NCBI GenBank assembly: GCA_030704615.1
Contig: CM060732.1
Span: 4,960,001-5,024,000 of the forward strand
Source: Takakia lepidozioides
Taxonomy: Eukaryota > Plantae > Bryophyta
Reading direction: 5' to 3'
Length of the DNA stretch: 64,000 bases
Below the pieces are notes generated by a model. The model ran no database searches, was not told where the DNA came from, and saw only the letters and a list, made by a program, of their open reading frames with translations. How positions within the stretch are numbered: the stretch's first letter is position 1; each line of letters starts with the position of its first letter. Shown piece by piece: positions 1-32,816 of the stretch. A program made the position numbers and the translations under genes.

Positions 1-792
1 AATCCTCTGAATTCGGAATAGTGTGTGGACCAAGCTTGTTTCACATGCGATTTCTCGTCGAAAAAAACATTGGAAACATTGCATTCCTTAACACTGTTTT
101 TTGGGATTAACAAGACTACAGAGGGAATGAAATCTCTAGGATGACTTACTTGTTCACGTCGTGCATAGCTGTAAGAAGCCTAGCGATGTCGTTTCCTGGA
201 TCCAAAACCATTGCCTCCACAGCAACATGCTTGTCTTTGTCTTTCGCATGGTGTTTCTGATGTATCCCATCCATGCCAGCAATCGGTGGTTGCCGTCCCA
301 GACGTAAAAACATGTGGTTGCAGAATTGTGGGTGTTCTTTCCCATCATGAGGCCCAGCTCGAACTCCTCATTGGCATCTTTCCAGCACTCATCCCAGGTA
401 TCACTGATCTCTGGAGACACTAATGTGCTTTTCCCATTTATATCCGTCAGTGACACATAAAAAACTTGTGCACCAAGTCTGTATCCATGCACGAAATCAC
501 TCTCCAATTTTGTTATGTCATGGGAAAGAGGTGGACGCACAACAGGCATAGATATCATCCGGCACAGAGGGATGTCCAGACGCCCTCCAGATACGAGCAT
601 GTCCCTTATAACCTCCTGAGAGTTTACCTTCTGGAATGACATGAGTTCTTTCACCTTGTCAAGGTAGTGCACTTCAGATTCATCTGCTTCATCGTTATTC
701 TCTGAGCTTTTTCCAGACTCGTCCCCATCTCCAGATCCTTTCCCCTCTGATCCTGTAGGCTTGGACCTCACAGTTTTTTTGCACGATGCCAT
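1..792 (-). pseudogene. ParB/Sulfiredoxin-like (DGNHR motif) accessory gene of a Mutator-like element, copy 1; spliced, runs off the window start
   Basis: ORF 154..792 has PLCRMISMPVVRPPLSHDITKLESDFVHGYRLGAQVFYVSL...FYVWDGNHRLLAW. After a frameshift it continues ...AMHDVN|gtaagt (donor near 149), then an exon reading TEKSHVK.SLVHTLFRIQ. Homologous to 23035-23940. Confidence 0.65.
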
Positions 793-1608
793 TCAATTTG
801 ACTGAGTAATGTGCAAATAGTGAACGGCGGTAACGACCATCACTCTGTCTCGACGAAACTCACAATGAATGGTGTGAAACAAATTCAGAACCATCTACAC
901 AAGCAAAGCTGATCTGCCGAATTCAAAAACAAAGCGAGAGCGAGAGCGAACGGCGTTAACGACAATCACAAAAGACAAGGACCTGCCGGATCGGTGTTGT
1001 GTAATGACATATGTGTAAGTGATTGGCGGCAACGACATTCAGTATAGTTTAGGGCGGACAGTAAGTGCAGATTATTCAGATTGACTCCATTGTGATTACC
1101 GTCGCAAGCATTCACGGTTTCTTGTCTATGTCGAGAGTACTTTCCAATCGATACTCTACCTGAATCTACAGTATGGTCTTCAAATCTTTGATTGGCGGTA
1201 CCGCCTTTCCACTTCTCTATCTGTTCAACCTCATACAAAGAAAATGCATTGCAATACATTATGACTGAATATGCGACCCTCACTCTCTCTCTTCAAACAC
1301 ATAGGTAAATAAATCTCATGAGGAGAATCAAAATGGCGTTAACGACGCTCGCAATTCAGTAGACTTCAATCACATGTTCCTGCTAAAGAAGGGAAGAGGA
1401 AGGACTGCTTGAAAGGCAATCAGACAGACTGTATGATCTGAACAACAGTGAATGACGGTACCGTCAGTCACCCACTCATTGTGCGTAAACCCTTAACAGA
1501 GGAGTAGAAAGCAAATCACCGTTGTTTCATGGTGATGGTCGGTAGCGACAATCCCTTTCTGGGACATTCCACTCAATCTCTACGCAGATCTTCAAAATGA
1601 AATGTAAG

Positions 1609-2028
1609 TTAGAGAAAACTTACTGGCGCCTTCTTAGGTTTTGAAATTGGATCCCCTTCTGCAGCTTTCCTCTTCCCTCTCACATCTGCTGGAATTTTTG
1701 TCTGCTCTAGGGTTTCTGGACCTTCTCCCGGTTCAGCGTTCCTCGTACTTCCACCTCCTTCAGTTTCCCTGCGAGTCATCTCTGCATCCACAGGCTGGTT
1801 TCCAACGCGCACTGTTATCGCCGACTGTGTCACAGCCGCTGCCTCAGTCTCGGTCTGCTCTTGTGAATCAGTCTCCGCGTTCACCTGCTGCCTTGGCCCT
1901 GTGTTCTCCAACAAACGACGCCTCGTCATTTGCTCTCTTGCTCTGCGTCTCTCTCTAAGGGAAGTAAAATAAAGAGACTTTCTTCTCTTTCGTATTGTAG
2001 AAGGAACCCTCTCCAGCTTGACTACCAC
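1609..2028 (-). CDS. hypothetical charged/low-complexity protein, probably a transposon accessory ORF or upstream exon
   Basis: 139-aa ORF with basic NLS-like stretches (RKRRKS, KRKAAE, KPKK); lies between the ParB-like gene and the transposase; no recognisable domain. Confidence 0.3.
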   Translation of the reverse strand: MVVKLERVPSTIRKRRKSLYFTSLRERRRAREQMTRRRLLENTGPRQQVNAETDSQEQTETEAAAVTQSAITVRVGNQPVDAEMTRRETEGGGSTRNAEPGEGPETLEQTKIPADVRGKRKAAEGDPISKPKKAPVSFL

Positions 2029-2773
2029 TCTCCCTCTAAGCGCGAAAAGTAGAAAAACGAAGTGACTGATTTCTTGCGGGATTGCGTGCGTTGTTGCTTG
2101 TCTCTAGAAGCATCGGATTCCCTCTCGCGTGACCGTTACACATAGTCGTTCCCTTATTAGTGCACATGCCACAATTAGTGTACAGCTGTTCGTATTCAGT
2201 TATCGATGTCTGACGTGTGTCGCCCAAAATAAACGGCGTGTTCTTTATTAGAACGGTTTCAATATTTAAAAAAACGCGAATCCCATAAATCTTGGCGCAC
2301 AGTCTTAGACAAATATATGTAAATGAACGAGAGTTTGATGACAAATTTTGGGATATCATACACGGTCATCCTTGTTAGCCAACCCCACGTCGTTTCACAT
2401 TTTGAACTTTCCAGGTGCGCATGATCATTGGTAGTAGTATAAAGATACATTTACTTAATCTGCAATCCCACCCTCAGATCCTGTGGCATGCTTCCAGGAA
2501 GTCGGCTTGTTTGTGTTTATTGATGAGGTTCTGATTAACGGTTTAACAGCTGCCGACATGCTCGTAGGATACTCTGACCACTGGGCCCACAAGAAAAGTA
2601 ATTAAAATGGACGGCTGCATATCTGGAAGGAATACAGAATATGCACAGTCGTCGTCTGAGCTTCCTCCGCCATATTCTCTGCTCATTCTTCAACTGTGTT
2701 CTGGAGACATCAGTAAACCGATTTACACTGAAGGTCTGCGATAGCAAGGTATCAACGTACGCGAGGAAGGAAG

Positions 2774-5000
2774 ATGGCTTCCTCTGAAGCGGAGTTCTTC
2801 TCTGACGACAAACCAGTGAATCCCAGGAAGTCCTTGACAATGGATTTGCAATTGTTCTGGAACATGTCTTGGCTACCCGTTTTCAGCTTCAGAATGGCTC
2901 CATCTTTTTGGAGAAAGAGGTGTACGATTGAAAGGGAAGTTGTTGAAATACTCTTTCCAAAACCGTGATGAGACGGCTCATGTCAGCCAGTGGAGAGTGC
3001 CCTCGTCGATACAGAGTACTTGGAGAGCCTCGGCAAAGTCCCTTGGGTCATATGTGACGCCCGGGACTGCTGCTTCGGTCGTTGAAGACAAGAGGGGTGG
3101 TGGTGAAAAAAGAACAGACGTCCTCCCACTCCAATCGTTGAGCTTTCGGATTCGTCCGATGATGACATAAGTGAAATTCCAAATCCAGTCCTTCCTACTG
3201 TGGTTGGAGAAGCTGATGAAGAAGAGATTTGTAGTGTCATTCCAAAATTACGGGCGATGGGAGTGGCTGGATTCAAAAGTGAGTTGCGAGGAATTGATTG
3301 GGAATCTTTGAAGCAGGTGCCTGTGAAGTTCTTGCCAGAGACTTTTGATGGCGATATCCTATTCGAGCTGCCTCCTCCTCCGCGAGTTGGAGGTGTAACA
3401 ATCATGATGCATGGAATGGACAAGAAACACGACGGGCACCCGTGGTGCAGAACAAAAACATCCAATATTCAGAATGATGACAAGCTTGTTTTCAGGAGAA
3501 CAGTTTGCAATGGACACCTTAGGTGTGATAATTTGAATTGCAGACACTTTCTTAGTCTGGGGTTCATAATCAAAGCGAATGGGAGGGTCTGGCGGAAAAT
3601 CCATTTCAGCCTGGGACTGCCCCACCACCGGCAAACACTTTCGTCTGCAAATTCTGCAAACTTGTGCCATCCTGCTTGGCGCTCTGCGGAGCAAGAATGT
3701 ACTATGTTGTCCACCGTTTGAAAACAATGACAAGAGCTTGTGTGCATTTCGGATTCCATAACCATCCTCTCGAAGGGGGATTACAGGGAGAGTGTTGAGA
3801 CAGTATCGAGGTTGATTAAACAGGAGTTCGGGAGAAACCCATCCGCAACAATCTGCAATTGCTCTTGGCGCAAGCAAGTCCTTCTTGGAAAGCCATATTT
3901 TGAGTGAAGGGGATTCTGTGGGGACTAAACTTGACGGTGCAGCATTGGACCTGGTCATGGATCATTTCTTTCTCCACTTTGAGTTCACCTAACATTCGGC
4001 ATCAGATCAATGCAGAATGTCTGGTATCAGAGGCTACATAGACAACATTTTGGAGTTGAAACGAGTGAGCAAGTACGATTACATCCAGGACAATGTATTC
4101 CCAGGTCAAGGTGCCATCAAAGTTTTTCTTTTCAAAATGTCGACTGTTGGGGAGGGCAGTGGGGTTAGCCTCGTGAAGCGGATGCAGAAGACTGGGGACT
4201 TGAAGAACTGTTTTCTTATGTTTGATCATGTGCGAGTGAAGGATTGGACGACAATGGCTTGTCATGTCTACGATCCAGTGTACCAACGAGTTATGACAAT
4301 TGCAGTTTGTGACATGCAATCCGAGGATACGGAATCCCAGAAGCTCATGTGGAATTCCCTGATACGTGTCATGGGCTGCCATCTCCAAATTTCGCAGGTT
4401 TCATGGCGGATAGTGCTCAAGCAAATTTCAATGTTGTTCGTATTGTCTTCGGATCGGGCGACCCAAAAGTGCCAATGCGAGGAAGAGAGCGTACATGTCT
4501 ATTCCATTGGACACAATCTCTGGAAAAATACAAAGTCGGACATCAAACCAGAGATGCAGACTCAGCACCGTAAATTGTGCAAAGAGTACAAAGATGCTAG
4601 AACAATGAAAAAGGCGGACACTTTGTTCCAGACAATTCGTGCCTGGTGGTTCTCTTCTGGAGCTGCATCACTTGAGAGTATGAGAGCATTGGAAGATTGG
4701 CTGGCGTTTTGGCACTTCCGGTATAGACAGTGGGGAGCAGCCATGCCAGTGGTACGAGGCTTATATTTCTTGCTTTATTCATACATTTACTTTCCATTTT
4801 ATTGTGTCCTCACTTTCTTTATGTTGTTTTCTGTTCACTGTTTTGAAGTGTGGTTCTCCACTTTGCAGAACATGTCCATGGAGGAAATGGCGGACATGCC
4901 ATCTTGCAATTTGGCAGAAACTGTGCACAACGTAGGGTTGCAGCAGTCTGGGAAATGAGGTCGAGATTTGTATGTGGCAACAACAGATGATTCTACTCTT
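2774..5000 (+). pseudogene. Mutator-like (MULE) DDE transposase with WRKY/GCM-like zinc-finger DNA-binding domain, N-terminal part; frameshifted and interrupted at ~5000
   Basis: DGHPWCRTKTSN...RRTVCNGHLRCDNLNC and CKFCK...C..C...HFGFHNHP (GCM-like). Catalytic segments LMFDHV, GFMADSAQAN, CLFHW (CxxH) and CNLAETVHN. One intron at about 4752-4868. Confidence 0.65.
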
Positions 5001-5004
5001 GTGA

Positions 5005-5395
5005 GTTGTATCAGGAGACTGGCCCCTTGCGTAAAGGGAGTTAGTTAATGTTCGTGAGTGGGATAATTTCCGAAACTAACGTGTTGTTGTTGGTGGACAC
5101 AGGAGCGTCGGACTCCTTCATGACACCGGCAACGGCACGGAAGCTGGGGCTCCCGACAAGTGATGTGGGGGCCTCTATTGAAGTGCGTTCTGCCAAAGGA
5201 GAACCACAACTGGCGACGAGGTTGGCGTTCAATGTCCCTCTTCAGCTCGGGAGTTGGGATGGACGTGAGAACTTCACCATTTGCGAGATCGATGGAGTGG
5301 ATCTCATTTTGGGGATGACATTTTTGAGCAAATCCGGAGCGGTCATAGATGGCCGCAAGAGAATAGTCACCTGCGTCAACAACCCTTCCCAAAAG
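5005..5395 (+). mobile_element. Ty3/gypsy aspartic protease fragment
   Basis: LLVDTGASDSFM and DLILGMTFL retropepsin motifs in ORF 5048..5482. Confidence 0.85.
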
Positions 5396-5666
5396 GCTAC
5401 TGGCATGAGAGGCATCTGTTGGTCTGGAGGAGCCTCTGGGAAGTCCTCGGGCTCCGATTCCCAAAATTCCTCCCGTTCTTGAGCGGCCTCGCTTTCAGAA
5501 GCATGAATCGCCTCTTCCAATTGCCGCTTCGGTGACACGCCGCCCCCACCAGGCTCACCAGGATCATCATCTTTCGGGCCGTTCCGCTTTCGCTTTGTCT
5601 TGTCCGACCCCATCATGAGGCCGATCTCAAGGACGATTGCGTACTGAACTTTAAGCTCTGATACCA
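5396..5666 (-). mobile_element. Ty3/gypsy tRNA-iMet PBS and gag N-terminus (opposite strand to the adjacent protease)
   Basis: gctctgatacca at 5655-5666 is the reverse complement of TGGTATCAGAGC; it is followed on the minus strand by MGSDKTKRKRNGPK... Confidence 0.8.
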
Positions 5667-5668
5667 AG

Positions 5669-6445
5669 TGTCGTGCACCTCACTTCGGTAAGCTCCCCTT
5701 CACGTCATAGTTACTTGCTTTGATGCGCGCGCCTAACTCCCAAACTGGCCGCCGGGCCAACTCGGAGCTTCGGCTGCTCACCGGGACATAAGGGTCCCTT
5801 TTTGCTCCTCCACAAGACCCTCGCTCACTTTGGGCCTAGTGGAAATTCCCTTTGGTTGTTGGCAGTCTGGAACAGCTCCCCCACCCTTGGTCGTTTTCTC
5901 TGGCTCGCACGCTTACTCACTAGTTTCTGGTCACCAACGGGCTTACACCGTTCTCGGAGTTACTACTCCCTATATATACTTTTGTGACTGTTCGCGGGGT
6001 TTCACAAACAACACCGTCCTTTTATGGCGAACCACCACGAAGACCCTTGACTCCCGCTGATGAGTTGCGGTGAGTCTTGGCCCACCCACCACGGCCCCAA
6101 TGGACCGTGATGAGTCCCAAGACTCCCCAGACTCCCACCACAACGTTCCCGCCCCATGGTGAGTCCTATGCCACCCCTACTAAGACCCACTAAGCTACCA
6201 CCACCCCTCGTGGAACCACCCCCCACCGCAACCCGGTGTGCGGGGCTCCACCTAGTGAGCGCCTTCGCCTCCTTGAGTGCCTTGGGCACTCAAGGGTGCT
6301 TCAGCCCCCGTACCTATTGTTGCCACTGCCCCCACCACAGGGGCAGCCCCTCTTGTATCCCGACCCCCTACCCTCAAAGCAAAGGGCCGCGACAAGCTCG
6401 GTCGGCCCTACCTTCAACCACACTCATGCCATGCACAAGGTCACA
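5669..6445 (-). mobile_element. 5' LTR of a Ty3/gypsy element (about 777 bp)
   Basis: TG...CA ends (tgtc at 5669, ggtcaca ending 6445); 2 nt from the PBS; TATA-like tatatata at ~5971. The outer boundary is approximate. Confidence 0.6.
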
Positions 6446-8169
6446 TTACGTGGCTGGACGATCTAGTGATATAGTTGAGCAAAAACGAATGGCATGCAAC
6501 AATAAAGCACTTGGTCCTTGAACAAAGAAATCAAGCCAGAAAGGGTTAATTAGGCATTCCCCCTTGCAACAGGTAAGAGCATGTTCCTTGTCACCAATCA
6601 CCAGAGCTGTGGGGATGCCCAATGCCTGCCAATTCAAGGTCTGACGACTGAAAGCGAGTCGTTTGATCTCAGCGATGGGTAAAATGGTGTGTGTCCACGA
6701 AGCACAATCTTCAGAGGCAAGCGGAAGATGTTGTGTGTTCAAAGAGTTATCTTCCAGGTGCATGCGCTTAGAGATGTAATGTGGGTAGCTCTTTCAAACT
6801 CTCTGCGAATGGCGTTGAGGAAACATTCGTAGCAACGGGAGTCTTCACTCAATGGTTGTAGTTCATGCAGATGTAAGATGTGCTGTTATTGTAGGTCATG
6901 TGCGATCTGGGCCAAGACTTCTTCAGGAATTAGACCCACAGGATCACAGTCCCAATCAAGAGTTTCTTCCTCCCAAGGGGCTTCGTACTCCTCAAATGGA
7001 TGTGTGCACTGTAAGGAGGGCAAGACTCAGCGTAGAATCCGTTCACAGGGGCAATGATAAGGGCGGACTGCGCAGACCATATCACCCGCGGGGTCAAAGA
7101 GCTGGTGACCACACCAAGGGAAGCTCGGGAGAAAGGAGACAAAGTAGACGAGGAATCAGATGAAGCAGCAGCAGAAGCACGGGAAACCATGCTGAACTAC
7201 AAGAGTAGAGAACACACAGGGAGAGGAAAATCGAAAGGGAAGTTGCGGGAGAAAATAATAAGAAGAAGTCATGGTGACGACGAGCTGATGAGCTGAGATT
7301 TAGGCAAACCGCATCTCCACCACAAAATTTTAGGGCTTGATTCTCCTTCCTCTACAAAAACGCAACAACAAACATTCGTGTCTTTTCCGAATCGACTTCG
7401 TATCCGAAACCACTGTGGGAACAACTTCGCAGTCCACGTTACTACTGGAGAGTCGCAACGGACAATGAAGGCCCACGGGGGCATTTCTAATGGCGGATAG
7501 AAGTTGCGTCAATGAGTCCGCCGTCGTTGCAATAATCGCGGCTATTTAATTCAATTACGTAAATTGGAAAAAAATAAAAAGCGGCAATTACAAGTTGTTC
7601 TAATTACTTCACATGCAACTAGAAAAGTACGTTCCTATTAGATGTAATGGAATAAAAATATTTATTCATTTAAATGAGTATACATCGATGGCGACTCCAT
7701 AACACCCCCATTGATTGCACCCTGGATCGGGCCCATTTGCTGACGTGTGTTTCAACAACAGAGGTGAACAATGAAAAGTCCGACGGGAATACTATTTTAT
7801 ATGTACCTCTTACTTTGCTCCACCTGGAAGTGACATGGATGCCCGTGCTGTCGAGAGAACATGGCGGGATGGAATAATTCGCCCTGGCCGGGTGAATGCG
7901 AACCAGACTGTGGATGACCTTCGTATACTACGAGTGCAGGTAGTGGCTTCTCAGAAGTGTGTGACATCGGGGTCGCGGTCAGAAGAGGGACGCCATAGCT
8001 CGCAGCGCAAGGAGGGTGTAATCAGCAATGGTGAAGCGTGGTCCTCCTGCAAGATTGCCATGCATGGAAGAGAAGCGCCTGCTTGGGACTGAACTCTCTG
8101 CAGCCCACACTCAGATCAGAAAGCTGGAAGAAGCTGTTGGCAAGATGGAAGCAAGGTGGTGCCCTGTCA

Positions 8170-8850
8170 GGTGCGTGTAGCCTCAGCAAATGTGTGTGCG
8201 AGCCTGGCAGCCATGCAAAAGGGCAAAGAGGTCCATGGTGACATCATCAAGCTGGAGAATTGAACCAGATGTCTTGCGAACATACCTGTGGTGGACATGG
8301 TTCCAATGTGGTAGCATCGCAGTTGCGAAGGGAGAGTTTGACAACATTGCTGAACAAGATGTTGTCTCATGGAACACGCTAATCGCAGGATATGGCCAGC
8401 ATGTGCGCGAGATGATGGCATTGAGACATATGAGCAAATTTGCGGGAGGGGTGCAGCCTGACCGGTTCACGTCATTTGTGTTTTTGCAATGCATGTGCAA
8501 ACCTGGCAGCCCTGAAAACCTGGAGACCTGGTCAAGGGCAAAGAGATCCATCGTGACATCGTCAAAGTTGGACTCTCACCAGAATGTCATTCTGAACAAT
8601 ACCCTCGTGGACATGTATGCAACGTGGGAGCATTGATCGATGCAAAGGGAGTGTTCAACAATATGGTTGAGCGAAATGTGGTGTCGTGGAACGCGATGAT
8701 CGCAGGACATGCACAACAGGAGCGGGAATTAGAGGTTTTGGAAACCTACATGAGCAAATGATGTGGGAGGGGGTGAAGCCCGACCACAACGTTTGTTTGC
8801 GTTTGCAATGCTAGTGCGAGCTTGCTGGAGAAGGGCAAGAGGTCCATGGT
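8170..8850 (+). pseudogene. PLS-class PPR fragment
   Basis: DVVSWNTLIAGY, NVILNNTLVDMYA and GKEVHG-type motifs, with frameshifts. Confidence 0.85.
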
Positions 8851-8879
8851 TTGCAATGCCAACGCGGAACAACAAGGTC

Positions 8880-9190
8880 GAGGACAATGTGGTGAGGGCA
8901 CCTTCTTTTTCAACCTATTTCAGCCTGTTTTTCCCTCTCATCAGACTCGGCCCTGAGATGCATATTGAATTCTGTAAGTAATCTCGTTTTGCTTCTAAAA
9001 GAATTTCAAGGGAGGGAGTCCATTATGCCTCTTCTGGCTCTTCTGGGCATGTGAAGATGCTTTGTGAGGCAGGCAGACTAAAAGATGCTCTACAGACTTT
9101 AAACCAAGGAGCATTTCAGCAGATTCAAATTTGTATGTATGTCTCTTGCTTAAGTGCATCAAGATGAAAGGTCTGGAAGCGGGAAAGCAG
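8880..9190 (+). pseudogene. 5' exon/linker fragment of the PDF-PPR gene family, truncated at 9190
   Basis: Near-identical to 33590-33765 (SSGHVKMLCEAGRLKDALQTLNQG...YVCLLLKCIKMKGLEAGKQ), and includes the recurring exon ending gaattct|gtaagt. Confidence 0.7.
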
Positions 9191-9549
9191 GACTGGGCTA
9201 GGAACCGCCACTTCACGAGGCCCTTCAACCTGACCTTGGGCCTTGGCAAGTGCGGCTTCCTTGCGGAGGAAGGGGTCTATATAGGGGTGACATCCAAAAG
9301 TTGCCTGAACCGGGGCCCCGAACGGGTGATGCGCTTGCCAAGGTACATTTCACCCGTCTTGGTGGCCGGGGGTGTCCTCAACTGACCATCCGGCCCAACA
9401 ACAACCTCCCAAATAGGAGAGGTGGCTCGTCTTGTCCCGGTCCAAGACGGGGACAAGAGGGGGGGTACTGGCCTCAGGGGGCAGACGAGCCCATCCGGCT
9501 GCGGCTGTCAACGGGGCTGGTTAACCGTGAGACGCCAACCCGCGTCACA
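9191..9549. mobile_element. probable LTR fragment
   Basis: GC-rich segment that interrupts the PPR fragment; contains ctatatagggg and ends cgcgtcaca; no partner LTR in the window. Confidence 0.35.
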
Positions 9550-9705
9550 CGTGCCGGCAAAACAAACGAGTTCTCCGCCCCTTTCTTTGGGGCAGGGGAC
9601 TTCTTCTCTTTTTCCCCTAAGCGTGGCACAAGTCATGCAAACCCAAAAGTTTGCCTCACCAGGAAACATCTCTACATTCCAGATCCAAAAAAAAAACAAA
9701 GCATG

Positions 9706-9832
9706 TGGGGGGCTGAGAGCAGCAAGTGCTGCTGCTCTCAGCTTCCCCCCACCAGAGAGGGTGCAAGAAAATAAAATAAAAATGTGGGGGGGGGGGGGGG
9801 GGGGAAGTGACTGAGCAGCAGCAGCTGCTCAG

Positions 9833-9863
<31 letters not shown>
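9706..9863. repeat. two adjacent GC hairpins with poly-G/poly-C arms
   Basis: ggggggctgagagcagca-agtgc-tgctgctctcagc-ttcccccc, and G19 (9786-9804)...ctgagcagc-agca-gctgctcag...C31 (9833-9863). Confidence 0.8.
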
Positions 9864-9891
9864 ACCTTTTTGTTTTTGTTTGCTCGTCTCG

Positions 9892-9894
<3 letters not shown>

Positions 9895-9958
<64 letters not shown>
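9895..9958. repeat. (TC)n microsatellite
   Basis: about 32 perfect TC units. Confidence 0.97.
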
Positions 9959-9962
<4 letters not shown>

Positions 9963-10116
9963 CACTCCCCACAAAAAAACAAAAATCGGAGAGGAGAGAG
10001 AGGGGGCAGCAGAGAGGGAGAGAGATGGATAGAGGGGGAGAGAGAGGGCCGTGTTTCCTGGTCAGGAGCGACCAATTGCACCTGATTCAATACAGGCTGG
10101 CGGACACAATCAATAT

Positions 10117-11150
10117 ATGAATCAAATTACGATATAAGTATTGATGCGTCGTATACTACGCATATTGCAGCCACGACTTGATGCCCAAGCTCGCAATCAC
10201 ATTGCACGGGAGGCATTTCGCGCCGGTCTGCTTGCAGAATTTGTGCCAGAGCCTGTGCCCGATGACACCAGTTGGTTCCCCCAGTACCACGTAGATAAGA
10301 TGCATAGGGTCGAGGGGTATCGTAGATGTTGTAGGCGTAATGGCCGGTGACGAACATGCCCACCCCCCCCTCCGGTTTCCTCAGGCGGTCCCCCTGATCC
10401 AGTGTCCTCATCTGATGATTCTTCGCGCCGTACATGCAGTAGCAGCTTACAGGCCGATTGTGCCCCCCCCCCCCCCCCCTGTCTGTTTCTTTTCCTGATC
10501 CACCTCCGGTAGTACCTGATCCGGATGTTGTACCCCCAGCTACACCTCCGACATTACATCCTCAACCACCTCCACTTTTATCTCCTCCGCCAGCAGTACC
10601 ACCTCCACCTCCACCTCGACGTGCATGTGCCCCCCGAACCCCTTGGAGGGGTCGGCTTCGCCCTAGGTTTCCTCCCCTTCGGCTTGGGCGACCTGAGCCG
10701 GATCCTCGCCCCCGCTGGGAAGCATATAGGACTATGTTACTGAGGACCGTTCAGCCTCGTTGTTGGGGGAATCATCTCGACCCTCCTACCCCCATCCAAG
10801 AGAATGTGGAGTTTGAGTATTGGGGTAGACGTTATGTTGTGAGAGCCGCTACTGACCCTGCTATGGGTCGGGGTTTATTCACGGTCAATGATATTGTGGT
10901 TCCTCGTGGGAGCAACAGCATGGTGGACTTGTTTCCCTACTACGGTCCATACTATACCTCCGGGGAATTCCGTACATTACGCCTCGAAGCACCATATATT
11001 TTACCCTACATTTTGTGTGTCAACGGACAGGATGTACGTAGATGGGGGCTGTCTCCCATTGAGATCAGATTTTGTGATGGTGACCTCGATATCTTCAGCA
11101 ATGTTGCTGGGCTGGTCAACAGTTCTTTTGGTCATCTTAGGAGAACCAAT
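10117..11150 (+). pseudogene. divergent SET-domain gene with proline-rich linker, 3'-truncated
   Basis: ORF 10458..11198 has MGRGLFTVNDI...PYYGPYY...YILCV...FCDGD...NVAGLVNSS...N, the SET motif order GxGLF / YxG / D / N-x(4)-NHS-like. The C-terminal EL..DY motif is absent. A possible first exon lies at 10117-10347. Confidence 0.55.
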
Positions 11151-11629
11151 AACCCTATTTTAACCCGGACTTTTGACTTAAATCCGGACGAAACTTAATA
11201 TATAACATATTAAAATTAATTCAGGTAATAATAATAATATCGTGGAATATTGAGTCATTTAACTTGTCATTTATGTAACATCAAATGGTAAGTCGAATGA
11301 CGTACTTTGCATCAGAAAATTATAAAGATAAGATCGATTGAATGAAGTTATTAATAAATTGATAGATGTATGACATAAACAAATGATTCAAGAAGATAAT
11401 ATACAAATGAAAAGTAAACATCCATACCATGCTTACAGTATAGTAGTACCATAAACCAATGTATTGCAAGTTTTTAATTGATGGATTAAAACGTTGAATG
11501 GAATAAGGTTGGATTTCAATGAAACATGTGAATTATGTTTCAAAATATTTAGAGATCATTCCGAAAGGTTCATGTGACAACCAAATATGGTGGAAGAGTG
11601 TCATGTAGATTAAGCTAAAAAATCATTGA

Positions 11630-12500
11630 ACCAAGCTGGAATTAGGTTTTAGGTTATAGAGTTTGCTAGGGAACATTGAAACATAGTACTTGGTATGAAT
11701 GGAAAAGAAAATATGGGAAAGTATACAGATGACTTGGCACCTATGAAAATTTGTTAATGAAATATCCCAACCACAGATTGTATCCAAATTTCTATGAGGA
11801 ATGTGAATCAAACAATGGAGTTTGGTTTAGGGTTTAGGGTTTTAGAAAACTACAGTTTGAGTCTTTACCCATACGTAGAACAATTCATGAAATATTATCC
11901 CCACCACTTCGACCGTACCCAAAATTGGAAGTAATAAATAAATAAACATCAAACATTGAAATTAGGTTTTAGGATATATAGTTTGCGACTAACCATAGTA
12001 CTCGGTATGAATGGAAAAGAAAATATTGGGAAGGGTACAGATGACTTGTCACCTATGATTTAGGGTTTAGGGAATAAAATTTCCCAACCAGAGATTGTAT
12101 CTAATATATGAAGAATGCGCATCAAACAATGGAGTTACGTTTAAGGGCTTAGGGTTTAGGGTTTAGAAAACTATAAATGGACAAACAATTATGGAATGTG
12201 AGTCTTTACGTGGAGGTCGTACAACAATTCAGGAAATATCCCCTCCACTTCGACCGTACCAAAAACTGGAAGCAATAAATTAAATAGGCATCAGACATTG
12301 GAATTAGGTTTTAGGGTACGGAGTTGAGTAGTGTAGTAAACATACTACTGGGTATGAATGGACCAAAAAATCTGGGAAAGTGTACAAGTGACTTGTCACC
12401 TAAGAAATTAGACGAATGAAGTATCCCAAGGGCCATTCTATTATGCCCAACCTGAAGAATGCGCATCAAACATTCGAATTAGGTTTAGGGTATATGGTTT
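11630..12500. repeat. AT-rich tandem repeat, about 2.6 copies of a 320-340 bp unit with telomere-like TAGGGTT motifs
   Basis: unit start attaggttttagg at ~11641, ~11961 and ~12303; shared blocks ggtatgaatgga..., gacttgtcacct, ccacttcgaccgtacc. Confidence 0.8.
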
Positions 12501-13039
12501 AAGGTGAGGACAATGTAAGGACTGAAGGCCCCAGAAGTATTGTCTTTAGAAGGTCCTAATAAGATAACAGACCCAAGATAAATTGACCTGAGATGACACG
12601 GAATAACGGGTGGCAAAGCGAGGTTCAGGACTGATTAGTGACGAAGAAAATTGAGAAGAATCTTAAGATAGTCCGAAAAGGCAGTAAAGGAAATGTAATT
12701 TTGTACTTGAAGCCAGACTTACAGAAAGCTAATGACGAGTAATGGGAGAAGATTCACAAGATTCACAAGCAGTAAACCGCGAGAAAGCTTGTCCATTGAA
12801 GCAACATCTTTCACAAATTGCCACGCGGTTTATACTCAGGACATTTTTTAGACCAATCATATTGAGCCCAACAATACGATCATGTGGACCGAGAATGAAG
12901 GAGATGGGCGAATCTGTTGAGGAGAAGACACTTTGGTGAGAACCAGAGAACCAAAAGAAATGGATGTAATGTGAGAGATGAACTGCAAAGAAAATGAAGC
13001 AGTGACATCAGGAAAAACTAGGAACTCCGGATGATCACT

Positions 13040-13871
13040 CACTACAACAGATCGTGGTATTTATGACTATATATATGACTATTCTGCAGTTATAAACGGT
13101 ACATATGACTTCTATGACTGTAAGTCGTGGAAACAAAGTCAATACAATGAGTACATGATGGTACGGTCCGGATGACTACAGTCATATGAACCAAGTGATA
13201 TCTCTTACTGCAGTCATATATACCATACTGCAGCCGCCGCTACCGCGCCACGTGACGAGGCGCAATTGATTTAAAAAATTAAATTAAACTAAAAAAGTAA
13301 AAACATATGTCAAACGCCGCGTTGCACCGCATTGTGCCACGTGGCATAATGTATTTTATAATAATGAAAAAACCACGTGGCAGTCCATCTAGGGTACCAC
13401 GTGCTATCCCTAGCTCGCCTACTAACCCTAGGGCCATCTTATCCATTTGATTGTACTTAGAGGAATTTGAACCTGCAACCTCTTTAATATAAGAGTTATA
13501 GTTCACTACCTGTTAACCAATACACCCATTAGTCATTCATATGATCATATGGTGTTTTAATTGTATTATACACACCAAATTACAAAATCCCCATCATGAC
13601 TATGTAACCTCATCCATGTACACTGTAGTCATGGAAATGACTATGAATGGTGAACTAAATCTGGTCAATTGCCGTTGACCAGCCTTCCGCCCATTCCGGA
13701 GCCATGTAGTCATACAGACGACTATTTAGATAGTCGTTCATATGACTGTAGTCGTATGAACGACTGCGGGAGGTCAATTTCATATAAAAACATGGTGCAG
13801 TCATGGTCAAAGTCATGAAAACCATGACTACCACGGTTTGGCAGTCATAACTACCGCGATCTGTTGTAGTG
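13040..13871. mobile_element. non-autonomous CACTA (En/Spm) element, 832 bp
   Basis: 29-bp TIRs CACTACAACAGATCG(T/C)GGTA(T/G)TTATGACT with 2 mismatches; 3-bp TSD ACT at 13037-13039 and 13872-13874; many subterminal ATGACT/AGTCAT motifs. Confidence 0.95.
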
Positions 13872-14050
13872 ACTCGAGGTTCCCGAAACGTTACAGAGAT
13901 GAGGTCCGGAAAAAAGCTGGTGGCTGGCAAAGAAGGTAGATTAATATTTGAACACGTAAAGAGAAACAAATGGAGAGTGGAGGTAAAACATTAGTTTTAT
14001 TCTTGAAAACATGCCGAGGAGTGAACCTCCACAATATGTCCTTGTCAACC

Positions 14051-17410: not shown

Positions 17411-20009
17411 GAACCTCGCGCGATCGCGCGTGTATCCTACAGTAGAGATCCTGGTGATTAATGATTCGGCACTATATCGATGGACACTAAGAAAGAGTGA
17501 AACAATAAGTTACTGAAGTTTGTTTAGAAAAACTGAGGATGAAGATGAAAATAAACCTCGCGCGATCGCCCGCGTTTAGGGTTATAATGATTTGGAAATT
17601 GAAAATAGAACTCGGACTCTCGGATAATGTACTAGAATGTACAACGTAGGTCTCTATTGGTTGAAACAGAAATTTGTAGAAAATTAAAGGATCTGCTAAA
17701 GCTACGACCCAAATGCACAACATTGTCTACGACTCCATAACATAAATAGAACCACGTCGACGGGCCTTCGCGCGTGGTTCAGATGGATGAAATGAAGGAC
17801 GGATGAATAATGGTAGACGAGTTTCAGATGACAAATAAGAAAATGGATGAATAAATGAAAACATGGATGAATGAAACAGCTGTAGTGCGAGTGATCATTC
17901 AAAGTACATAAAACGGTCGGGTGTGTATGTAAGATCTTTGTAGACAGTGGATGGGAACAGAGGAGCAGAGAGACAGAAGAGAAACCCAGATGAAATGGAG
18001 AGGCTCTCAATATTGACAAGAGTACAAAGGGAAGAATGAACGTAAAACAGACAGTTCTGAAGATCAGCGAGCCAGAGCAACTGAGAGGGAAAAAATGGCA
18101 TGCGTGCATAGGGCAGGCTCTTATACAGATTATCAAACAGTATGAGGTCGACGTGTTCACATTACAGAGGTGCGTTTGGGTGTCATGGATCGACAAATTG
18201 TCGCCCTGGATATGCTCTTTCGTGTAATCTAGTGGCTATTACGTGTCCTCCAGAGCATAAATTCAAGTAGGAGTCTGAAATCCACCGAATATTAATGGGT
18301 CCATAAGTTATTGCGTCCAATGCGAATAACTAATTGATTCGAGATATGGAATCTGACATCCAAAGCACCAGAAAAGCAGCAAATCCAATGTTGAATTAAA
18401 GATACAAGAGAAGGAATAGTCGGCGACGAAAGTGGCCGCCTCTTAAGGCCATTGTGATGAGCCGGCAGCCATCTATGGCAAGGTGACATTAAGTAGCCGC
18501 AATGAATGTGGGGCCGTAGATGAGGTGTAGGTAGAGAAAACGTGAGACCGATCAAGACCCAAATGCACGTCCCGACACCTCATTATTGAACCTATGAATA
18601 ATTTTTTATCACTGGATGAAATACGAGCCTTCGCGGATGAAAGAGAGGTATGCTGGATGAGATGACTGCCCTAGTGGATGATTCAACTACCCTCATGGAT
18701 GAGCGCCGTCACGGGAACCCGCAATAATTCCAGGGTGTTCACTTTATGAAGGCGTCGGATTGTCGCGCCGTAACACTCTGGACAAAATGGTGGAGTCCAT
18801 TCGTTACTGAGAGTCATGTCGCATATTGTACCTGCATAAATTTAGGGGTCCTCAGCGAACCGTTGGGAAACATCCCGCCTTTCATTCATCCATGCATCGA
18901 GGCCACAAACCGTCGGATGCGACATAACGCCGACGGTTGAGATCACAGGTGGTAAGGCATATAAGGAGGAGTGACGAAAGGATCTCCTTTTGCATTCATT
19001 GATACACGCGGAAGCCCTGTTCAATTTTGGACTCAAGGAAGAGGTGCGAGAGAGAGCGACTGAACGAGAGAGGCAGAGAGGTGGAGATCGAGGAAGCGAG
19101 AAAGTGAGAGATCGAGGGAGCGTGAGTTGGAGTGAGTGTGGGTTTGAGCAATTCACCGTGTGCGTGGGAGTGTGACAGAGGAGGTTTACTATTTCATGAG
19201 CAGAAACCATGATCCATGAGCCATGAGCCGCATGAGCGGTGAACCAAAGTCTAAGACACGCAGTTTTCATGAGCGGACTCCTCCAAATTTGGAAATGTGG
19301 CAGATTAAAAAAGTATTAAAATAATAGTTTTTTTAAATTTGACCTTGCCGTTTTTGGAAGTTCCAGATCCTGTAATGCGGCAAAGATATGTCGTCAGTAA
19401 CAACTCCGCTCATGGTTTTTTAGATCCGCTCATGGAAATGCGTGACCGTGCAACGAGAAATCCATGATACCACGACAAAAGGACGTCGCAATACTGGCCT
19501 GTTATAGAGTATCCGCGGTTTTAAATTACATGCCTAACATTGGAATGAGCTGACCCTTCTACCGCGATTGAACCATAGATCTGCACCATAGAATCTGCAT
19601 TACTTCACAATTCTGTCATCTTCGTATTCGGCGGAAAGGTTTTGCGAGTCAACTGGGAAATGCGGTGCCGCATAACGGTTCGCACGTGCGAAATTTCTGG
19701 GGGGTTCGCTGTTGGCGACGGTCAGCTCCCTGAAGACTGGGTGCAACTATCTTGCTATGACGAAGGCCGCAACTACCAGGACCTACGACGTTACTTGGAA
19801 ATGCGGCGCCGCATTTCCTTGCCGGGGATGGAATGAGGAAAAAGTTTGGAGAGCAGAAACATGAACCCTCCAACAAAAAAAATACAAGCACGTGAAACAA
19901 GTGGATGACATAGTTTTCTTAGTTCGAGCAAATAGGTTACTGGTAGGCAAGACATAAGTCGAACATTTCTGTGGCCAAAGTCAGAGGGTACTTGCAGCAG
20001 TACAGTTTA

Positions 20010-21216
20010 CTATAACTGAAACTCCGAAAAGAGGGCGTAACATTGTGTTTTGGCCCGCAAGCCAAGCTCACTGGTCCCCCTGGATCCATATTCAGAAGAT
20101 TGTAAACCTCTGGGCTCACCCTGGTGCATGTATGAAGTGATGAGTTGTGGAATTATATCGAGTCTCTTTAGGTACGCACGTAGTACAAATGCTTGCAAAG
20201 GGCAGTATGATGCCCCGTCTTCGCCATGATCTGAAGTCGGTTGCAATTGCAGGTGGGTAATTCTGAAATGGTGATGGTGTACACCCTCATTGCAAACAGC
20301 TGAGGTCCCGCCATGGCCATCTGATACACATGCCCGAAGCCTGGTGGGGGCACTTCGTCGCTCTGGATTATAGTTGTCGGGATGTCAGTGCGCTGCACCA
20401 TCCCGAAATCCTGCGGCTGACTCAATCGCAGCTGTTTCCACCCCGGCCACACCGTGGGAGCCTCTGGCATTGTTTGATGTCGTACTTGGGTTTTCCATAC
20501 ACGCAAGAAGTCATAATGTCTTGCCTGCAGAACCAGAACTGGGTGGGTTGTCGTCTCCGCAAACTTTGCATGGACAAATCTTTCTTGGAAAATAGAGCAG
20601 GACGCCCCATCTGGATTCCTCCTTATCAACTCTAAACAACGTTGTCATGTATCCACTCGAATTGCGGAACACCTGCCTCGAAACGTTGGCTTTGTGCAAG
20701 CAATTCTCCACTGTGACGCAGACACAGTCGTCTCCACACGCTTGGCCATACTGCATAACAGCGGGCGGAATCTGGGGCAAGCGAGCGGTGGGACTTTCTC
20801 GCACGAATCCCCGCTTGAAGGCGATGGCGATCGTGAAACTCTTGAGCTCCACTGCTGGAAGACACATTGTGCGGCAACATGACGAGACCTCGAGGTGTTG
20901 TCCGAATGTTCCTGTCGGATCTCTAGGAATCCTCTTCACACCCGGGTTCCTCTTCAATCCTCCGCCTCACAGGGCGAGTTACGACGTCCCCCTCTAGGTG
21001 TTCACCTCTGCGGTGCAGAGGCGTCATTTTGATCTTCTTTCGCAATGCTGTCATCCACTTCAGTGGATTCTTCGACCTCAAAGTTGTTCGTACCAACAAT
21101 TCCTCCATATCCGGCCCAAAGCCCCATTGTTTCCCGCTCAGGAACTTGTAATACGTGGCTTGCTGCATAATTGCTCTGTCGATGTCCTCCATTATGGCCG
21201 TCACTACGTCCACCAA
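20010..21216 (-). pseudogene. Mutator-like transposase C-terminal part with SWIM zinc finger (same family as 2774-5000, different copy)
   Basis: VDVVTAIMEDIDRAIMQQ..YYKFL corresponds to the DLYVATTDD segment of copy 1; YTITISELPTCNC...CKHLYYV is a SWIM CxC...CxH motif. Confidence 0.65.
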
Positions 21217-21224
21217 ATGTGCGG

Positions 21225-22327
21225 CAGCAACACTTGATGCCGATTCGGACCCGCTTCATCTTTGAAGTAAGGCTTCAAAAGGGAAACATAGAATACCGGA
21301 TGCACCTCGCCTTTGTACACCAACATGAGCTGCTGCTTTCTACTTAAAGCATCGGCCACCACGTTGTCCCGTCCCGTTTTGTATTGGAATACCACGTTCG
21401 AAACTGCCAAGTGTCTTGCCCCTAAGTTGTTTGGGGACCACTTAGGCTGTGTGGCAAAATATTTCACCGTGACATTGTCCGTGAACACCTTCACCGGGTT
21501 GGAACCAACATAGTGGCACCAAAACTCAAGGCAATGTACCACCGCCCTTATTTCTTTCTCGTGCGTAGGCCACCGTCGCCCCACTTCATTCAGTTTCTTA
21601 CTTTCGTAAGCCACTGGACGTCCAGCCTGCATGACATCCGCTGCTTCAACTCGACAAAAGCTTGGCCATAAAAAGTGTTCCATACCCATACCTTGGACTT
21701 ACACAGAAGGTCTGACAGCGGCCCCACGATCTTGGCGAAATTTCTCACATACTTTCAGTAATAGGAGGCGAGTCATAGGAAGGATCGTACTCTCGGGACC
21801 GAAGTCGGAGGCTCCCAGTCCAAGATCGCCCTCACCTTTTTGTCATCCATTTTGATCCCATCTTGTGTAATTACATGCCCTAGGAACTCCACTTTTGTGA
21901 CCCCGATTTCGTACTTTGAAGCTTTGGCATACAACTTCTCTTCCCGCAATTTCTGGAACACCCTTTTGATGTGCTCCAGGTGCTCTTCTTTCATTTTCGA
22001 GTACACCAAGATGTCGTCGATGTACACGATCACAAAGTCATCCAACCACTCCTGGAAAAGGCTGTTCATTAGCGTGCTAAAAGTCGCGGGTGCGTTGGTG
22101 AGCCCAAAAGGCATCACCAAGAACTCATATGAACCATATCTTGTCTCGTACACGATCTTCTCCTCATCTCCTTCCGCCACTCGGATTTGATGGTAACCTG
22201 AGCGCATATTGATCCGGCTGACATACTTTGCTCTTGCCAACCGATCGAAGAGATCGTCGATCCTTGGCAAAGGGTACCGGTTTTTTATAGTCACCTTATT
22301 CAGAGCCCTGTAATCGACACACATCCG
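21225..22327 (-). mobile_element. Ty3/gypsy (chromovirus-like) pol remnant: RT, RNase H, integrase C-terminus, internally deleted
   Basis: RMCVDYRALNKVTIKNRYPLPRIDDLFD, YIDD, GRPVAYESKKLN, NVVADALSR, HPVFYVSLLKPY. Confidence 0.92.
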
Positions 22328-23030
22328 TTGAGTGACGAGGATCGGGTGGAAGTGGCTCCCACCTATTTGAGGGGCTATGCTCAACAATGGTGGCAGAAAC
22401 GCTTCATGACCAAGGTCCAAACCCAGAAACCTTGAGCTGGAGTGGGTTCAAGGAACTTAAAAAAAGACAGTTTGTGCCCTTCAACGCGTCTTGGCTGGCC
22501 CGAGACAAGATGAGGAATTTGAAGCAAACGGATGACATTCGGGGATATGTTCAGGCTTTCAATGTGCTATTGCTCAAAGTCACGGATATTGCAGAACCAG
22601 AAATGGTCTTCAACTTTGTGGCGGGACTGGCCCCATGGGCCAGGCGGAAGTTGGAGGAGAAGCCACCTAAGACTTTGAACGAGGCAATTGAAAGGGCTGA
22701 ATGTTTCTCGGATGTCCCTAGGGGCGAAAGACAAGGTCGTACGGAGTTGAATCATAAGAAGGCCCGGCGGGAGGGTGATTCCTTCCGACCGGAAAAGAAG
22801 TGGGATAGGCCACGCGGCGACAATGGCACATGGAAACCGAAGGGAAGGCCTTCACACGTCAAAGCGGCACTCGGTGCTCCGAAAGGAAAATCAGGTGCGG
22901 CGGCTTATGGCGGACAGAAGGCGACCTTCGATGGAGTGTGCTTTAATTGCGGGGAGCCTGGGCACATGGCCAAGAAGTGCGCGAAACCCCGACAATTGAA
23001 CATGACTCGGGCGACCACGGAGCTGTCCGA
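22328..23030 (+). mobile_element. Ty3/gypsy gag fragment with CCHC knuckle (inverted relative to the adjacent pol)
   Basis: TYLRGYAQQWW, ARDKMRNLKQT..IRGYVQAF, FNFVAGL, CFNCGEPGHMAKKC. Confidence 0.88.
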
Positions 23031-23034
23031 AGAT

Positions 23035-23940
23035 TCCATCAGCCGCTTGGTAGAGGTGGTAGTCGCCAAGACTTGCAAGCCACTCTGTCGCATGGTCTCC
23101 CTTCCCATCGTCAGGCAGGCTCTTCCAAGAGATGTGGATAAGCTCAAGTTCGCATTTCGAGAAGGGTACCGTCTAGGTTCGCTAGCCTTCTACGTTTCCA
23201 TTGAGAATGAGGACGACGAAACTCGTGGACCCACTGCGGATGAATTGTCAGGATGGGATACCCACTGGCACGCTCGCAACGACAAATTTGAGACAATGCT
23301 GAAGGGTGATCCAGACTTCGGCCATATGTCGGGCAAAATGTTTTTTGTGGGACGGGAATCACCGACTTCTTGCCTGGTGGGAGTACATCAAGCAGAACCA
23401 TTCCAAGCATATTGGCTGGCATTACATGGTGGAGTGTGTCATCCTCAAGGTGAAGGCGGCAGACTCCTCCCTGCTCAAGAATGCCATGGCGGACCTCAAC
23501 TCGTAAGATTCTCATACCCTCCCAAGCACATCCAATTAGTTTTGTTTCCGTGCTTCATTGGACTGAACTGGAGAGTGTGCCTTGCAGGTTCACTGAAAAT
23601 GCTTACGTGCATACCCACATGGCACATATGCTGTACAGGGTGAGGAAAACTGGTCTCACTGACCCGCACATGTTCACCAAAATGCTGGAGCCCGAGCTCA
23701 TTCAAAAAGCCCTGGCAAAAACAGACCGGACATGGTATCGCCTCACTATGGATGAAATGGTGGAGGTGATATACGAAGTAAGTCGTCCTCCCATTTTCCT
23801 CTGCTCATCCTTCCCCAATTTCTAGTCATCTTTCCACATGGATCGTATGTAATGCTTCTACATGTTTTTCTTGGCAGTCAAACATCAAGCTGGATTTGGT
23901 CCATGCCAAACGCTTCTTCATGGAAAGTGAGGGGTTCACC
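23035..23940 (+). pseudogene. ParB/Srx-like (DGNHR) gene, copy 2; 5'- and 3'-truncated, spliced
   Basis: PLCRMVSLPIVRQALPRDVDKLKFAFREGYRLGSLAFYVSI...LWDGNHRLLAWWEYI...AMADLN|gtaag, with the same intron position as copy 1; next exon FTENAYVHTHMAHMLYRVRK. Confidence 0.65.
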
Positions 23941-24941
23941 TGTACACAATTCGTATTGCAGCTTTTCCCGCCCCCTCCTGGTGTGTAAACTCCACGCTCC
24001 TTCTTGATGTCTGCAGCTCCCTGGCGAAGAGGTTGTCCTTGTACGCACATCTGAAACGTGTCACGTAGTCTTCTAATGTCTGTGTTCCATCCCATTTGAC
24101 ATACAAGCCGAACGAATCACTATGCATTACGACTTGCTCCTTCGCATTCATCATTACCTGCGTTTCCAACATGCATTGTCACGTAGGAGTTCACGGAATT
24201 CATCCCAGCAAAGCAAATCGGGGGAAGTACCTTGAATTACCTAGAACCACCAAGTCATGCGGTTGAGCCACACATCCACTGCAGGGTCGGAAACTTCGAG
24301 TGGAAAAGACCACATGGTCCTTATACTCTCCGATGCATTCCAGATCGACAGCCACCGTGTTTGCCATTTCCGATCCAATGTCAGGAGCAGGAAGAAGAGT
24401 GGCTATTGCTAGGAAGGAACTTCAGTGCATTGAAACCTCACCTTCTCTTTCGCCTCCACATATGCCGTTGAGAGGTGATGCAATTTCTCCAACTGCATGG
24501 TCGGCTGCATGGCCCGAGAATAGTGTTTTGCAATCTCGGGGATGAAGTCCTTTCCAAGTGTCGGATCTGCAATGGCCACCAGCTTCACAAGCTTTATTGG
24601 TTCTGGACTTGACCCCGGCTTCCTTCAAGTGCTCGGTCAATGACTGTAATGCGGTGCCGCATTTCCGAGCTTGGGCATGGAGATGTTTCCTTTTACTCAT
24701 ACATGGATTTCCTTCACCTCAGGACTTTGATATCGCTGACTCTGGTATATTCATGTGGACAGACACATTGTAGAAATGAGACCACAAATTGTAAATAGTG
24801 GGCCAATTACAGCAGTTCTTGAACACAATGAAACACAGCACACAGAAGTGAGGTACGATGGGTTGTTTTATTGATCGAACACGGTGTCTCACATTTAGCA
24901 ACTCCAGACAAATCTAAGCCCTTCCGCTTTCTACATGGGCG

Positions 24942-32345: not shown

Positions 32346-32816
32346 CAGACCAATCCAGGATCACCAGACTATAGACATAAGCAGCACACGCATGAGGTCC
32401 TTTGGATTGAGAGTTGGTTGAATCCTCCTTGGGTGGAAGAAAAGCTAGCTGCTTTCATGAGACAAGATCAAGGACAACTGGTGCGGGCACTTTCTTCTTC
32501 AACCATTTAGTCTTGTTTTGTCCTCTTATCACATTCATTCCCAATTTTTCACTTTGTGTTTTTAAGTTACCTCGTTGGGTGAATCTATGGTGGTTTGGAT
32601 TTTTTGCACATGTTACTGCCAATGGGATAATAGACGCATTGAAAAAACTTTCTCACAAATTGTCAGCAATGCAGCACCAAAACTAGTGTGTGGTAAGTAT
32701 GGTCAGGGTGTTTGCTAGATAAATTTTAGGTTATCATTGTCAGCTCTTAGCAGCAGGGCCATACTGTTGCCTAGGCAGGGTTAGCTGAAAGAGGCAGGGA
32801 TGAAGTGTGGGTGCAG

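Follow-up and report, generated by a model that had tools for sequence, protein, structure and literature searches.

Introduction

Mutator-like elements (MULEs) that carry accessory open reading frames (ORFs), such as MuDR (mudrA/mudrB), VANDAL/Hiun (vanA/B/C) and yeast Mutyl, combine a DDE transposase bearing CxxH and SWIM signatures with long terminal inverted repeats (TIRs) and one or two extra ORFs (PMC6446971). VANC is known to act against silencing in MULEs (PMC6446971), and it is among the few cases from which escape of plant transposons from methylation silencing is known. Here we describe a related family, represented by two copies in a 64,000-nucleotide stretch of DNA from the moss Takakia lepidozioides (hereafter the window; GenBank assembly GCA_030704615.1, contig CM060732.1, positions 4,960,001 to 5,024,000, forward strand). 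The family is very probably a three-gene Mutator-type transposon of seed-free plants with TIRs of about 200 bp, and it resembles VANDAL in its three-gene layout. Unlike the transposases of known MULEs, however, its transposase has a predicted GCM-fold DNA-binding domain and escapes the Pfam MULE, FAR1 and SWIM models. Its accessory protein, a predicted fusion of a ParB/Srx-fold domain to a methyltransferase-like domain, has no counterpart among the accessory types that the available part of PMC6446971 names. The element is a member of the Mutator superfamily with a type of accessory protein that was not found in the literature searched. No description of the family was found there either, although subscription journals, Repbase and the supplements of PMC4738411 and of the Marchantia paper (10.1101/2021.02.12.428880) lay outside the search and could mention its proteins. 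The family is a new candidate for escape from silencing, with enzyme folds that can be assayed, and it bears on the origin of N4-methylcytosine (4mC) and N6-methyladenine (6mA) enzymes in early land plants and on whether transposons carry them.

The nucleotide domain of the ParB/Srx superfamily (ParB, Noc, KorB, PadC and VirB; sulfiredoxin; SerK/SbnI; DGQHR/DndB-like proteins) is best known from bacterial clamps. The accessory domain described here aligns with this fold over 80–99 residues (Z 5.5–7.4) and has DGNHR at the nucleotide motif, but it shows 8–15% identity, contains an inserted Trp-rich helix, has no recognised helix-turn-helix (HTH), and is encoded by a eukaryotic, intron-containing gene. 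The C-terminal domain shares the motif order IV...X-I-II with beta-class N6/N4 methyltransferases of prokaryotes and phages, among them the enzymes encoded at phage ParB-terminase loci, and is matched by PF01555, PHROG and Atlas. It differs from them in reading D-[VILM]-P-[GRETDS] rather than DPPY at motif IV and in residing on a DNA transposon of plants. Methyltransferases of eukaryotes that derive from ParB-Tls loci have been described; their fusion partners in the available part of PMC4738411 are FHA or the ParB HTH rather than the ParB catalytic domain. Two other bacterial-type beta-class amino-methyltransferases of eukaryotes, MpDN4MT1 of Marchantia and N4CMT of bdelloids, are compared here by description only; both are host genes with an intact SPPY, unlike the element protein (10.1101/2021.02.12.428880; PMC8885841). 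As described in these sources, MpDN4MT1 lacks extra domains (10.1101/2021.02.12.428880), and N4CMT, which carries a chromodomain, labels transposons for silencing (PMC8885841).

Architecture of the element

The original prediction, made from the window alone, was of a head-to-head pair at the window start (copy 1), a DGNHR-motif gene on the minus strand and a GCM-finger/DDE transposase on the plus strand. Six-frame translation bore this out, with both genes frameshifted (Table 1). On the evidence of sequence and model, the plus-strand gene is a Mutator-type transposase with a GCM finger, as had been proposed. We found 242 homologs, and an alignment of 56 of these revealed conserved Cys/His pairs, D517, D583 and C612xxH; the third acidic residue (E) is encoded by the following exon. 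A structural model (predicted local distance difference test score, pLDDT, 80) gave its best long alignment with ISCth4 of the IS256/Mutator group (Z 9.2 over 178 aa), followed by RAG1 (7.5) and Hermes (6.7). Foldseek likewise placed ISCth4 first (E 1.4e-3, prob 1.0) and returned the GCM domain 1odh (prob 0.97, E 0.025). At the N-terminus, about 85 aa of the transposase form a separate and well-folded domain, and a SWIM-type CxC...CKH tail is present in the window and at loci L002 and L054. The Pfam MULE, FAR1 and SWIM models matched 0/56 homologs, and Transposase_mut matched two of the 56 at E 0.034. Current Pfam models thus overlook a high-copy MULE lineage, and hence its proteins are annotated only as hypothetical or, in UniRef, as 'trimethylguanosine synthase'.

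A metagenome scan identified 277 relatives, of which the best 80 loci were kept and collapsed to 48 non-redundant groups. Because these loci carry introns and long terminal repeat insertions, we took them as plant DNA. The transposase profile matched nine groups and the tail added two (L025 and L036), so that the transposase was found in 11/48 groups, or 11/19 of those with at least 8 kb of upstream sequence. In all 11 it lies upstream of the ParB gene on the opposite strand; none was seen downstream in 128 kb, compared to 262 kb examined upstream. The suggestion that the two genes form a conserved module was thus upheld by their linkage elsewhere. We rejected a candidate gene in the interval that separates the transposase from the ParB gene, as the shared upstream matches proved to be inserted repeats and Ty3 pieces.

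The module as first described was incomplete, since it overlooked the methyltransferase-like C-terminus of the accessory protein, a third gene and the TIRs. The third gene is spliced and, in 11 of the 19 groups with at least 7 kb downstream, runs convergently towards the methyltransferase end; ten of these 11 supplied the profiles, pairwise homology having been seen beforehand. No Pfam match to this gene was obtained with 30 locus fragments, and no match to it was found in the window. L037 and L069 contain all three genes, and the element exceeds 17 kb in L037, nested insertions included. Homology between copies halts at defined ends, which start with repeated GAGCATGA-like motifs. Comparison of two left ends with three to four right ends from different loci revealed inverted homology over about 200 bp. 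Right ends are recovered in inverted orientation by a profile of left ends (E 4e-15 to 5e-12), and left ends likewise by a profile of right ends (E 4.5e-15 and 1e-12); shuffled sequence gave no match to either. Within-locus inverted-repeat scans of five loci recovered no TIR pair, and the TIR profile had no match in the window. Observed/expected CpG is 0.23–0.31 in L018, L042 and L069, with strong depletion also in L012, and stands at 0.67 in near-intact L006 and 0.5–0.6 in the window genes. CpG depletion in the element copies of most loci is consistent with long host methylation.

In copy 1, the accessory gene has its ATG at 792, DGNHR at 297–283 and an intron donor at 149–148, two bases past the AMHDVN codons. 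An intron two bases after MxDxN is common to both window copies, as first noticed from the window; related loci are interrupted at this same point, in most cases with GT there, and 31/158 homologous proteins terminate there. The gene continues beyond the window start, with the methyltransferase-like exons outside the window. In the transposase, the GCM-like Cys/His residues span about 3400–3770, the first D lies in FDH (4221–4229), the second in MADS (4403–4414), CxxH follows at 4496–4507, and the E lies in CNLAE (4905–4919). The gene ends abruptly at 4992, where Ty3 sequence replaces it. Both genes contain frameshifts, and several of these indels are absent from other copies. Contigs of run X2 (22,785 on 1–6000, a depth that does not equal copy number) span every bin, and the spacer is repeated genome-wide together with both genes. 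Hence copy 1 is one decayed member of a repeated family. Both window copies are dead. The spacer is probably a bidirectional promoter region.

The DGNHR domain

A word-based search with the DGNHR domain identified 14 homologs, Selaginella among them, and a profile search identified 1158 clusters (50% identity) at E ≤ 0.001. Eight long profile matches that we looked up came from Riccia sorocarpa, Adiantum nelumboides and Selaginella moellendorffii, with several annotated copies in Riccia. At the GxxR-type nucleotide motif, DGNHR is spelled exactly in 54 of 62 motif matches, and an N in the following helix is nearly invariant (86/88). Pfam gave no match in pieces of either window gene (among 145 ORFs) or in 16 ParB-domain homologs, a search of PDB sequences with the ParB profile returned chance matches only, and PHROG matched ParB-like (E 0.0027) and DGQHR-family (E 0.022) proteins weakly. 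The top Atlas feature match was fungal DUF3723 (PF12520; 0.95, 177/256 features), which belongs to a different transposon class and has no corresponding Pfam DUF3723 match here; we treat it as a lead only. DUF3723 is presumably a recurrent Starship gene. Pattern scans for relatives, which are insensitive to distant ones and silent on origin, gave 0/42 among viral-contig candidates and 0/29 among prokaryote-genome candidates.

Membership in the ParB/Srx superfamily, which had been proposed from the motif, was checked by AF2 modelling of homolog P0003 from 17 sequences (pLDDT 67 on average and mostly 80–93 in the core). The top 12 Foldseek matches were all ParB, Noc, KorB, PadC or Srx, none at E ≤ 0.001. 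Against 48,161 chains, all eight matches at Z ≥ 5 belong to the ParB/Srx superfamily, led by PadC (Z 7.4; rmsd 2.8, 97 aa), KorB (7.3; 2.6, 93 aa), Srx (6.8) and SerK (6.5), with the next unrelated chain at 4.3. These scores are middling, yet they agree with one another, which supports a ParB/Srx fold; on the strength of the model, the domain very probably has it.

The methyltransferase-like domain

At related loci, conserved exons extend about 3.5 kb beyond the ParB exon and encode a helical region followed by a beta-class amino-methyltransferase-like domain. In these relatives the full accessory protein reaches about 1200 aa, and the ParB domain is only its N-terminus. The fusion of ParB to an N6/N4 methyltransferase-like domain was seen in metagenome loci, Riccia, Selaginella and Adiantum. 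Riccia KAL3677308 (P0341, 1207 aa), for example, contains the DGNHR domain (hhalign prob 99.5) and the methyltransferase-like domain in one protein. PF01555 matches at E 5.2e-5 in KAL3677308 and 9e-6 in P0339, the PHROG DNA methyltransferase at E 8.7e-7 in KAL3677308 and 2e-7 in P0342, and Atlas N6_N4_Mtase clusters at 0.95 in KAL3677308. The motif-IV exon, found with a profile trained on seven loci, is present in 25/48 loci; of the 26 loci with at least 4 kb downstream, 21 have it after the ParB exon. The sequence indicates a permuted Rossmann order, with motif IV ahead of motifs X-I-II. In all likelihood, then, the C-terminus of the accessory protein has a methyltransferase fold.

Whether the domain could be catalytic was considered from motif IV, tallied in 101 exon homologs (from the best 120 of 160), many of them in decayed copies. 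The residues are D (45) or N (44), V (45) or I (34), P (40) or L (33), and then G (42), R (24), E (12) or K (8). Among the matches listed, position 4 is aromatic in 2/101, and the motif does not conform to the catalytic (D/S/N)PP(Y/F/W). By source, the motif reads DLPT/DMPT in Riccia, DMPD/DLPD in Selaginella, DIPE in L006 and, in Adiantum only, DVPF. The downstream PxWN retains W in 105 and N in 109 of 113 exon homologs listed. Riccia (DFAGGWG) and Selaginella (DATAGCG) have a canonical motif I (D-x-x-x-G-x-G), which reads DWNASTG in near-intact L006 and is eroded in decayed loci; the acidic residue after strand 2 (motif II) is retained in Riccia and Selaginella. Active enzymes have SPPY or DPPY as their catalytic motif (PMC8885841). 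As the fold is kept and the motif-IV aromatic mostly lost, canonical catalysis seems doubtful.

Possible roles of the accessory protein

Arguing by analogy, we give just under even weight to the interpretation that the relatives encode, between TIRs, a transposase, a divergent ParB-methyltransferase fusion and a third gene, and that the fusion protein acts against silencing of its own element. A self-protective, DNA-binding role for this protein is possible, and we hold it tentatively. An anti-silencing role is favoured because of the precedent of VANC, because the ParB-family protein VirB provides CTP-dependent anti-silencing (PMC10245682), and because the methylase fold is kept without the stacking residue, as in the transposon-borne DIRS1 N6A methyltransferases, which were judged inactive (PMC4738411). 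In such a scheme, the GCM finger of the transposase would bind the repeated TIR motifs and the transposase would cut and paste the element, while the accessory protein would be co-expressed from the shared spacer. The DGNHR domain may bind a nucleoside triphosphate (NTP) and, with this as a switch, load onto DNA and spread along it, like ParB and VirB. The methyltransferase-like domain, which appears to keep S-adenosylmethionine (SAM)-site residues but usually not the base-stacking aromatic, would more likely grip or flip bases, shielding them from the host 5-methylcytosine (5mC) machinery, than write marks efficiently.

Several observations weigh against this interpretation. The protective role is read from architecture and analogy. 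The individual fold scores for the ParB-like domain are modest (Foldseek E ≥ 0.014, VIA Z < 8), no ParB-type HTH stood out in structure comparison of its model, and the PF01555 match falls below the Pfam cut-off. Because the methyltransferase exons lie outside the window, the fusion in copy 1 itself is extrapolated from relatives. The linkage counts come from metagenome loci rather than named species, eight of the 19 loci with at least 8 kb upstream show no transposase, and L025 and L036 are 92–93% identical to each other. The loci are mostly decayed and may represent few host species, and hence may not be phylogenetically independent. In addition, no single locus contains both element ends, so that no target-site duplication was observed.

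An alternative that we consider unlikely accepts the same element but makes the fusion an active amino-methyltransferase, writing 4mC or 6mA on element or host DNA while the ParB domain lets it spread processively under NTP gating; such a mark would serve to block 5mC or to time transposition. The catalytic-before-SAM-binding order is that of the permuted beta-class of N4CMT (PMC8885841), and a liverwort 4mC writer is known (10.1101/2021.02.12.428880). The canonical motif I and the conserved acidic residue in Riccia and Selaginella fit this alternative as well, as do the aromatic residue of Adiantum and the conserved W and N of PxWN. Indeed, the Adiantum aromatic and the conservation of D, P and the downstream WN in more intact copies are compatible with catalysis and count against a purely protective protein. 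What speaks against an active writer is the absence of the motif-IV aromatic in 99/101 exon homologs listed and also in Riccia and Selaginella, along with the S that replaces the second motif-I glycine in near-intact L006 and the apparent inactivity of the DIRS1 enzymes (PMC4738411). One could go further and propose a transposon lineage, present in liverworts, lycophytes, ferns and probably mosses, that has its own bacterial-type epigenetic machinery, in which a sliding clamp of ParB type, gated by NTP and joined to a 4mC/6mA writer that is active, spreads a protective mark along the element against host 5mC silencing. This bolder idea seems improbable.

Rather than countering silencing, the accessory protein could be a MURB-like cofactor of transposition, with the ParB domain bridging or sliding to pair ends many kilobases apart and the methyltransferase-like domain serving as a DNA-binding scaffold for transpososome assembly or target choice. 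The length of the elements (>17 kb in L037) and the transposase's separate N-terminal domain, which recalls the MURB-binding N-terminus of MURA (PMC12973397), lend this idea some credence. We nonetheless judge it unlikely, as a SAM-type fold conserved from liverworts to ferns would not be needed for such a role, which the third gene could fill instead.

Two further explanations fare worse than the anti-silencing interpretation. The ParB/Srx domain could be a phosphotransferase or NTPase acting on small molecules or proteins, in the manner of SerK, SbnI or Srx, and so function as a toxin, in addiction or in signalling rather than on DNA. SerK, SbnI and Srx are indeed among the matches at Z ≥ 5, and there is the weak DGQHR-family match (E 0.022), but PadC and KorB score equally or higher, and fusion to a DNA-methylase-like domain together with carriage by a nuclear transposon points to DNA; we regard this as very unlikely. 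Least likely of all is that the gene is passive cargo, captured from the host or acquired horizontally in the manner of Pack-MULEs and without a role for the element: MULEs are known to capture genes (PMC6446971) and most observed copies are pseudogenes, yet position, orientation, intron and third gene are kept across subfamilies only ~65–80% identical in DNA, and the family spans 1158 clusters at 50% identity, with several annotated Riccia copies.

The second copy and the broken Ty3 element

The same divergent pairing was originally said to recur at 20010–23940. The DGNHR genes of the two copies do match (36% over 90 aa, 59% over 22 aa). On the transposase side, however, there is only a diverged SWIM tail scrambled with Ty3 sequence, and tblastx gave no match of the copy-1 transposase at 20010–21255. 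The tail (CxC...CKH at 20251–20186) resembles L002 at E 3e-4 and gave E 6e-5 in another comparison. The possibility that it is copy 1's own end, moved by inversion, was ruled out: other copies run past 4992 with different sequence, and so the tail comes from a diverged subfamily. The ParB gene of copy 2 is 5'-truncated (DGNHR at 23351–23365), a later exon is inverted, and Ty3 pieces lie between the genes, so copy 2 is not the independent, intact module it was taken for. Since the region is scrambled, copy 2 may or may not keep the natural layout, and its head-to-head arrangement is not independent evidence.

Table 1. Coordinates of the element genes and associated features. Positions are those of the window unless a locus is given.
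Feature	Position	Strand	Remarks
Accessory gene with predicted ParB/Srx fold, exon 1, copy 1	149..792	-	acidic N-terminus, IPLCR, DGNHR, MxDxN at exon end; frameshifted pseudogene
Accessory gene, start of exon 2, copy 1	1..55 (about)	-	translation resembles post-intron block of homologs (by eye)
Spacer between divergent genes	793..2773	.	in all bins covered by contigs of runs X2 and X5
Predicted Mutator/IS256-type transposase	2774..4992	+	small N-terminal domain, GCM finger, D-D-CxxH-E; frameshifted; intron ~4753-4868
Third gene, convergent with ParB-methyltransferase gene	L018:14500-16300, L037:16700-18800, L069:17200-20400, and eight more loci	-	
Two Ty3/gypsy pieces truncating copy 1, not MULE	4993..5670	.	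+ strand, protease; - strand, primer-binding site and beginning of gag
Five clustered CATGAGC motifs, candidate end of copy 2 (lead only)	19191..19275	+	same motif clusters at L033 and L042 termini
C-terminal transposase tail, diverged member of same family	20170..21210	-	SWIM CxC...CKH
Remaining pieces of same Ty3 element, between tail and second ParB gene	21250..23079	.	RT (reverse transcriptase)/RNase H on -; gag on +
Second, diverged ParB-fold gene, 5'-truncated	23080..23780	+	same intron; exon 2 ~23589-23777
Inverted piece, later helical exon of second ParB gene	24439..24588	-	tblastx to L010, 36% over 50 aa, E 1.3e-4

The Ty3 element is in four pieces, 4993–5391 (+), 5392–5670 (−), 21250–22333 (−) and 22334–23079 (+). 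In intact Ty3 copies, the gag piece ending at 23079 adjoins the protease piece starting at 4993. The interval 4992–23080 therefore reads as one Ty3 element, split into four pieces whose orientations have changed and that abut two distinct MULE copies; this is a complex rearrangement or possibly an assembly artefact. Another DNA element adjoins copy 2: a degraded, transposase-like DUF7869 gene at 14300–16500 on the minus strand (PF25273, E 4.6e-35).

Other features of the window

Two divergent copies of a gene of about 200 aa, 65% identical in DNA and with no Pfam match, lie at 24905–25545 (−) and 26052–26677 (+). Many degraded, mutually similar repeats occur at 8180–9000, ~28700–41000 and 53500–55500; PPR matches in the 8181–8758 copy suggest a decayed PPR gene cluster. 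A Ty3/gypsy-like element on the plus strand at 45400–52300 (gag, protease, RT, RNase H and integrase finger) contains a C5 cytosine DNA methylase domain at 48090–49025 (PF00145, E 2.6e-13). Retrotransposon-borne C5 methylases are known from dinoflagellates and charophytes. Directly before this element is a long G-rich tandem low-complexity tract (42620–45180; GC content 0.63, with strong skew).

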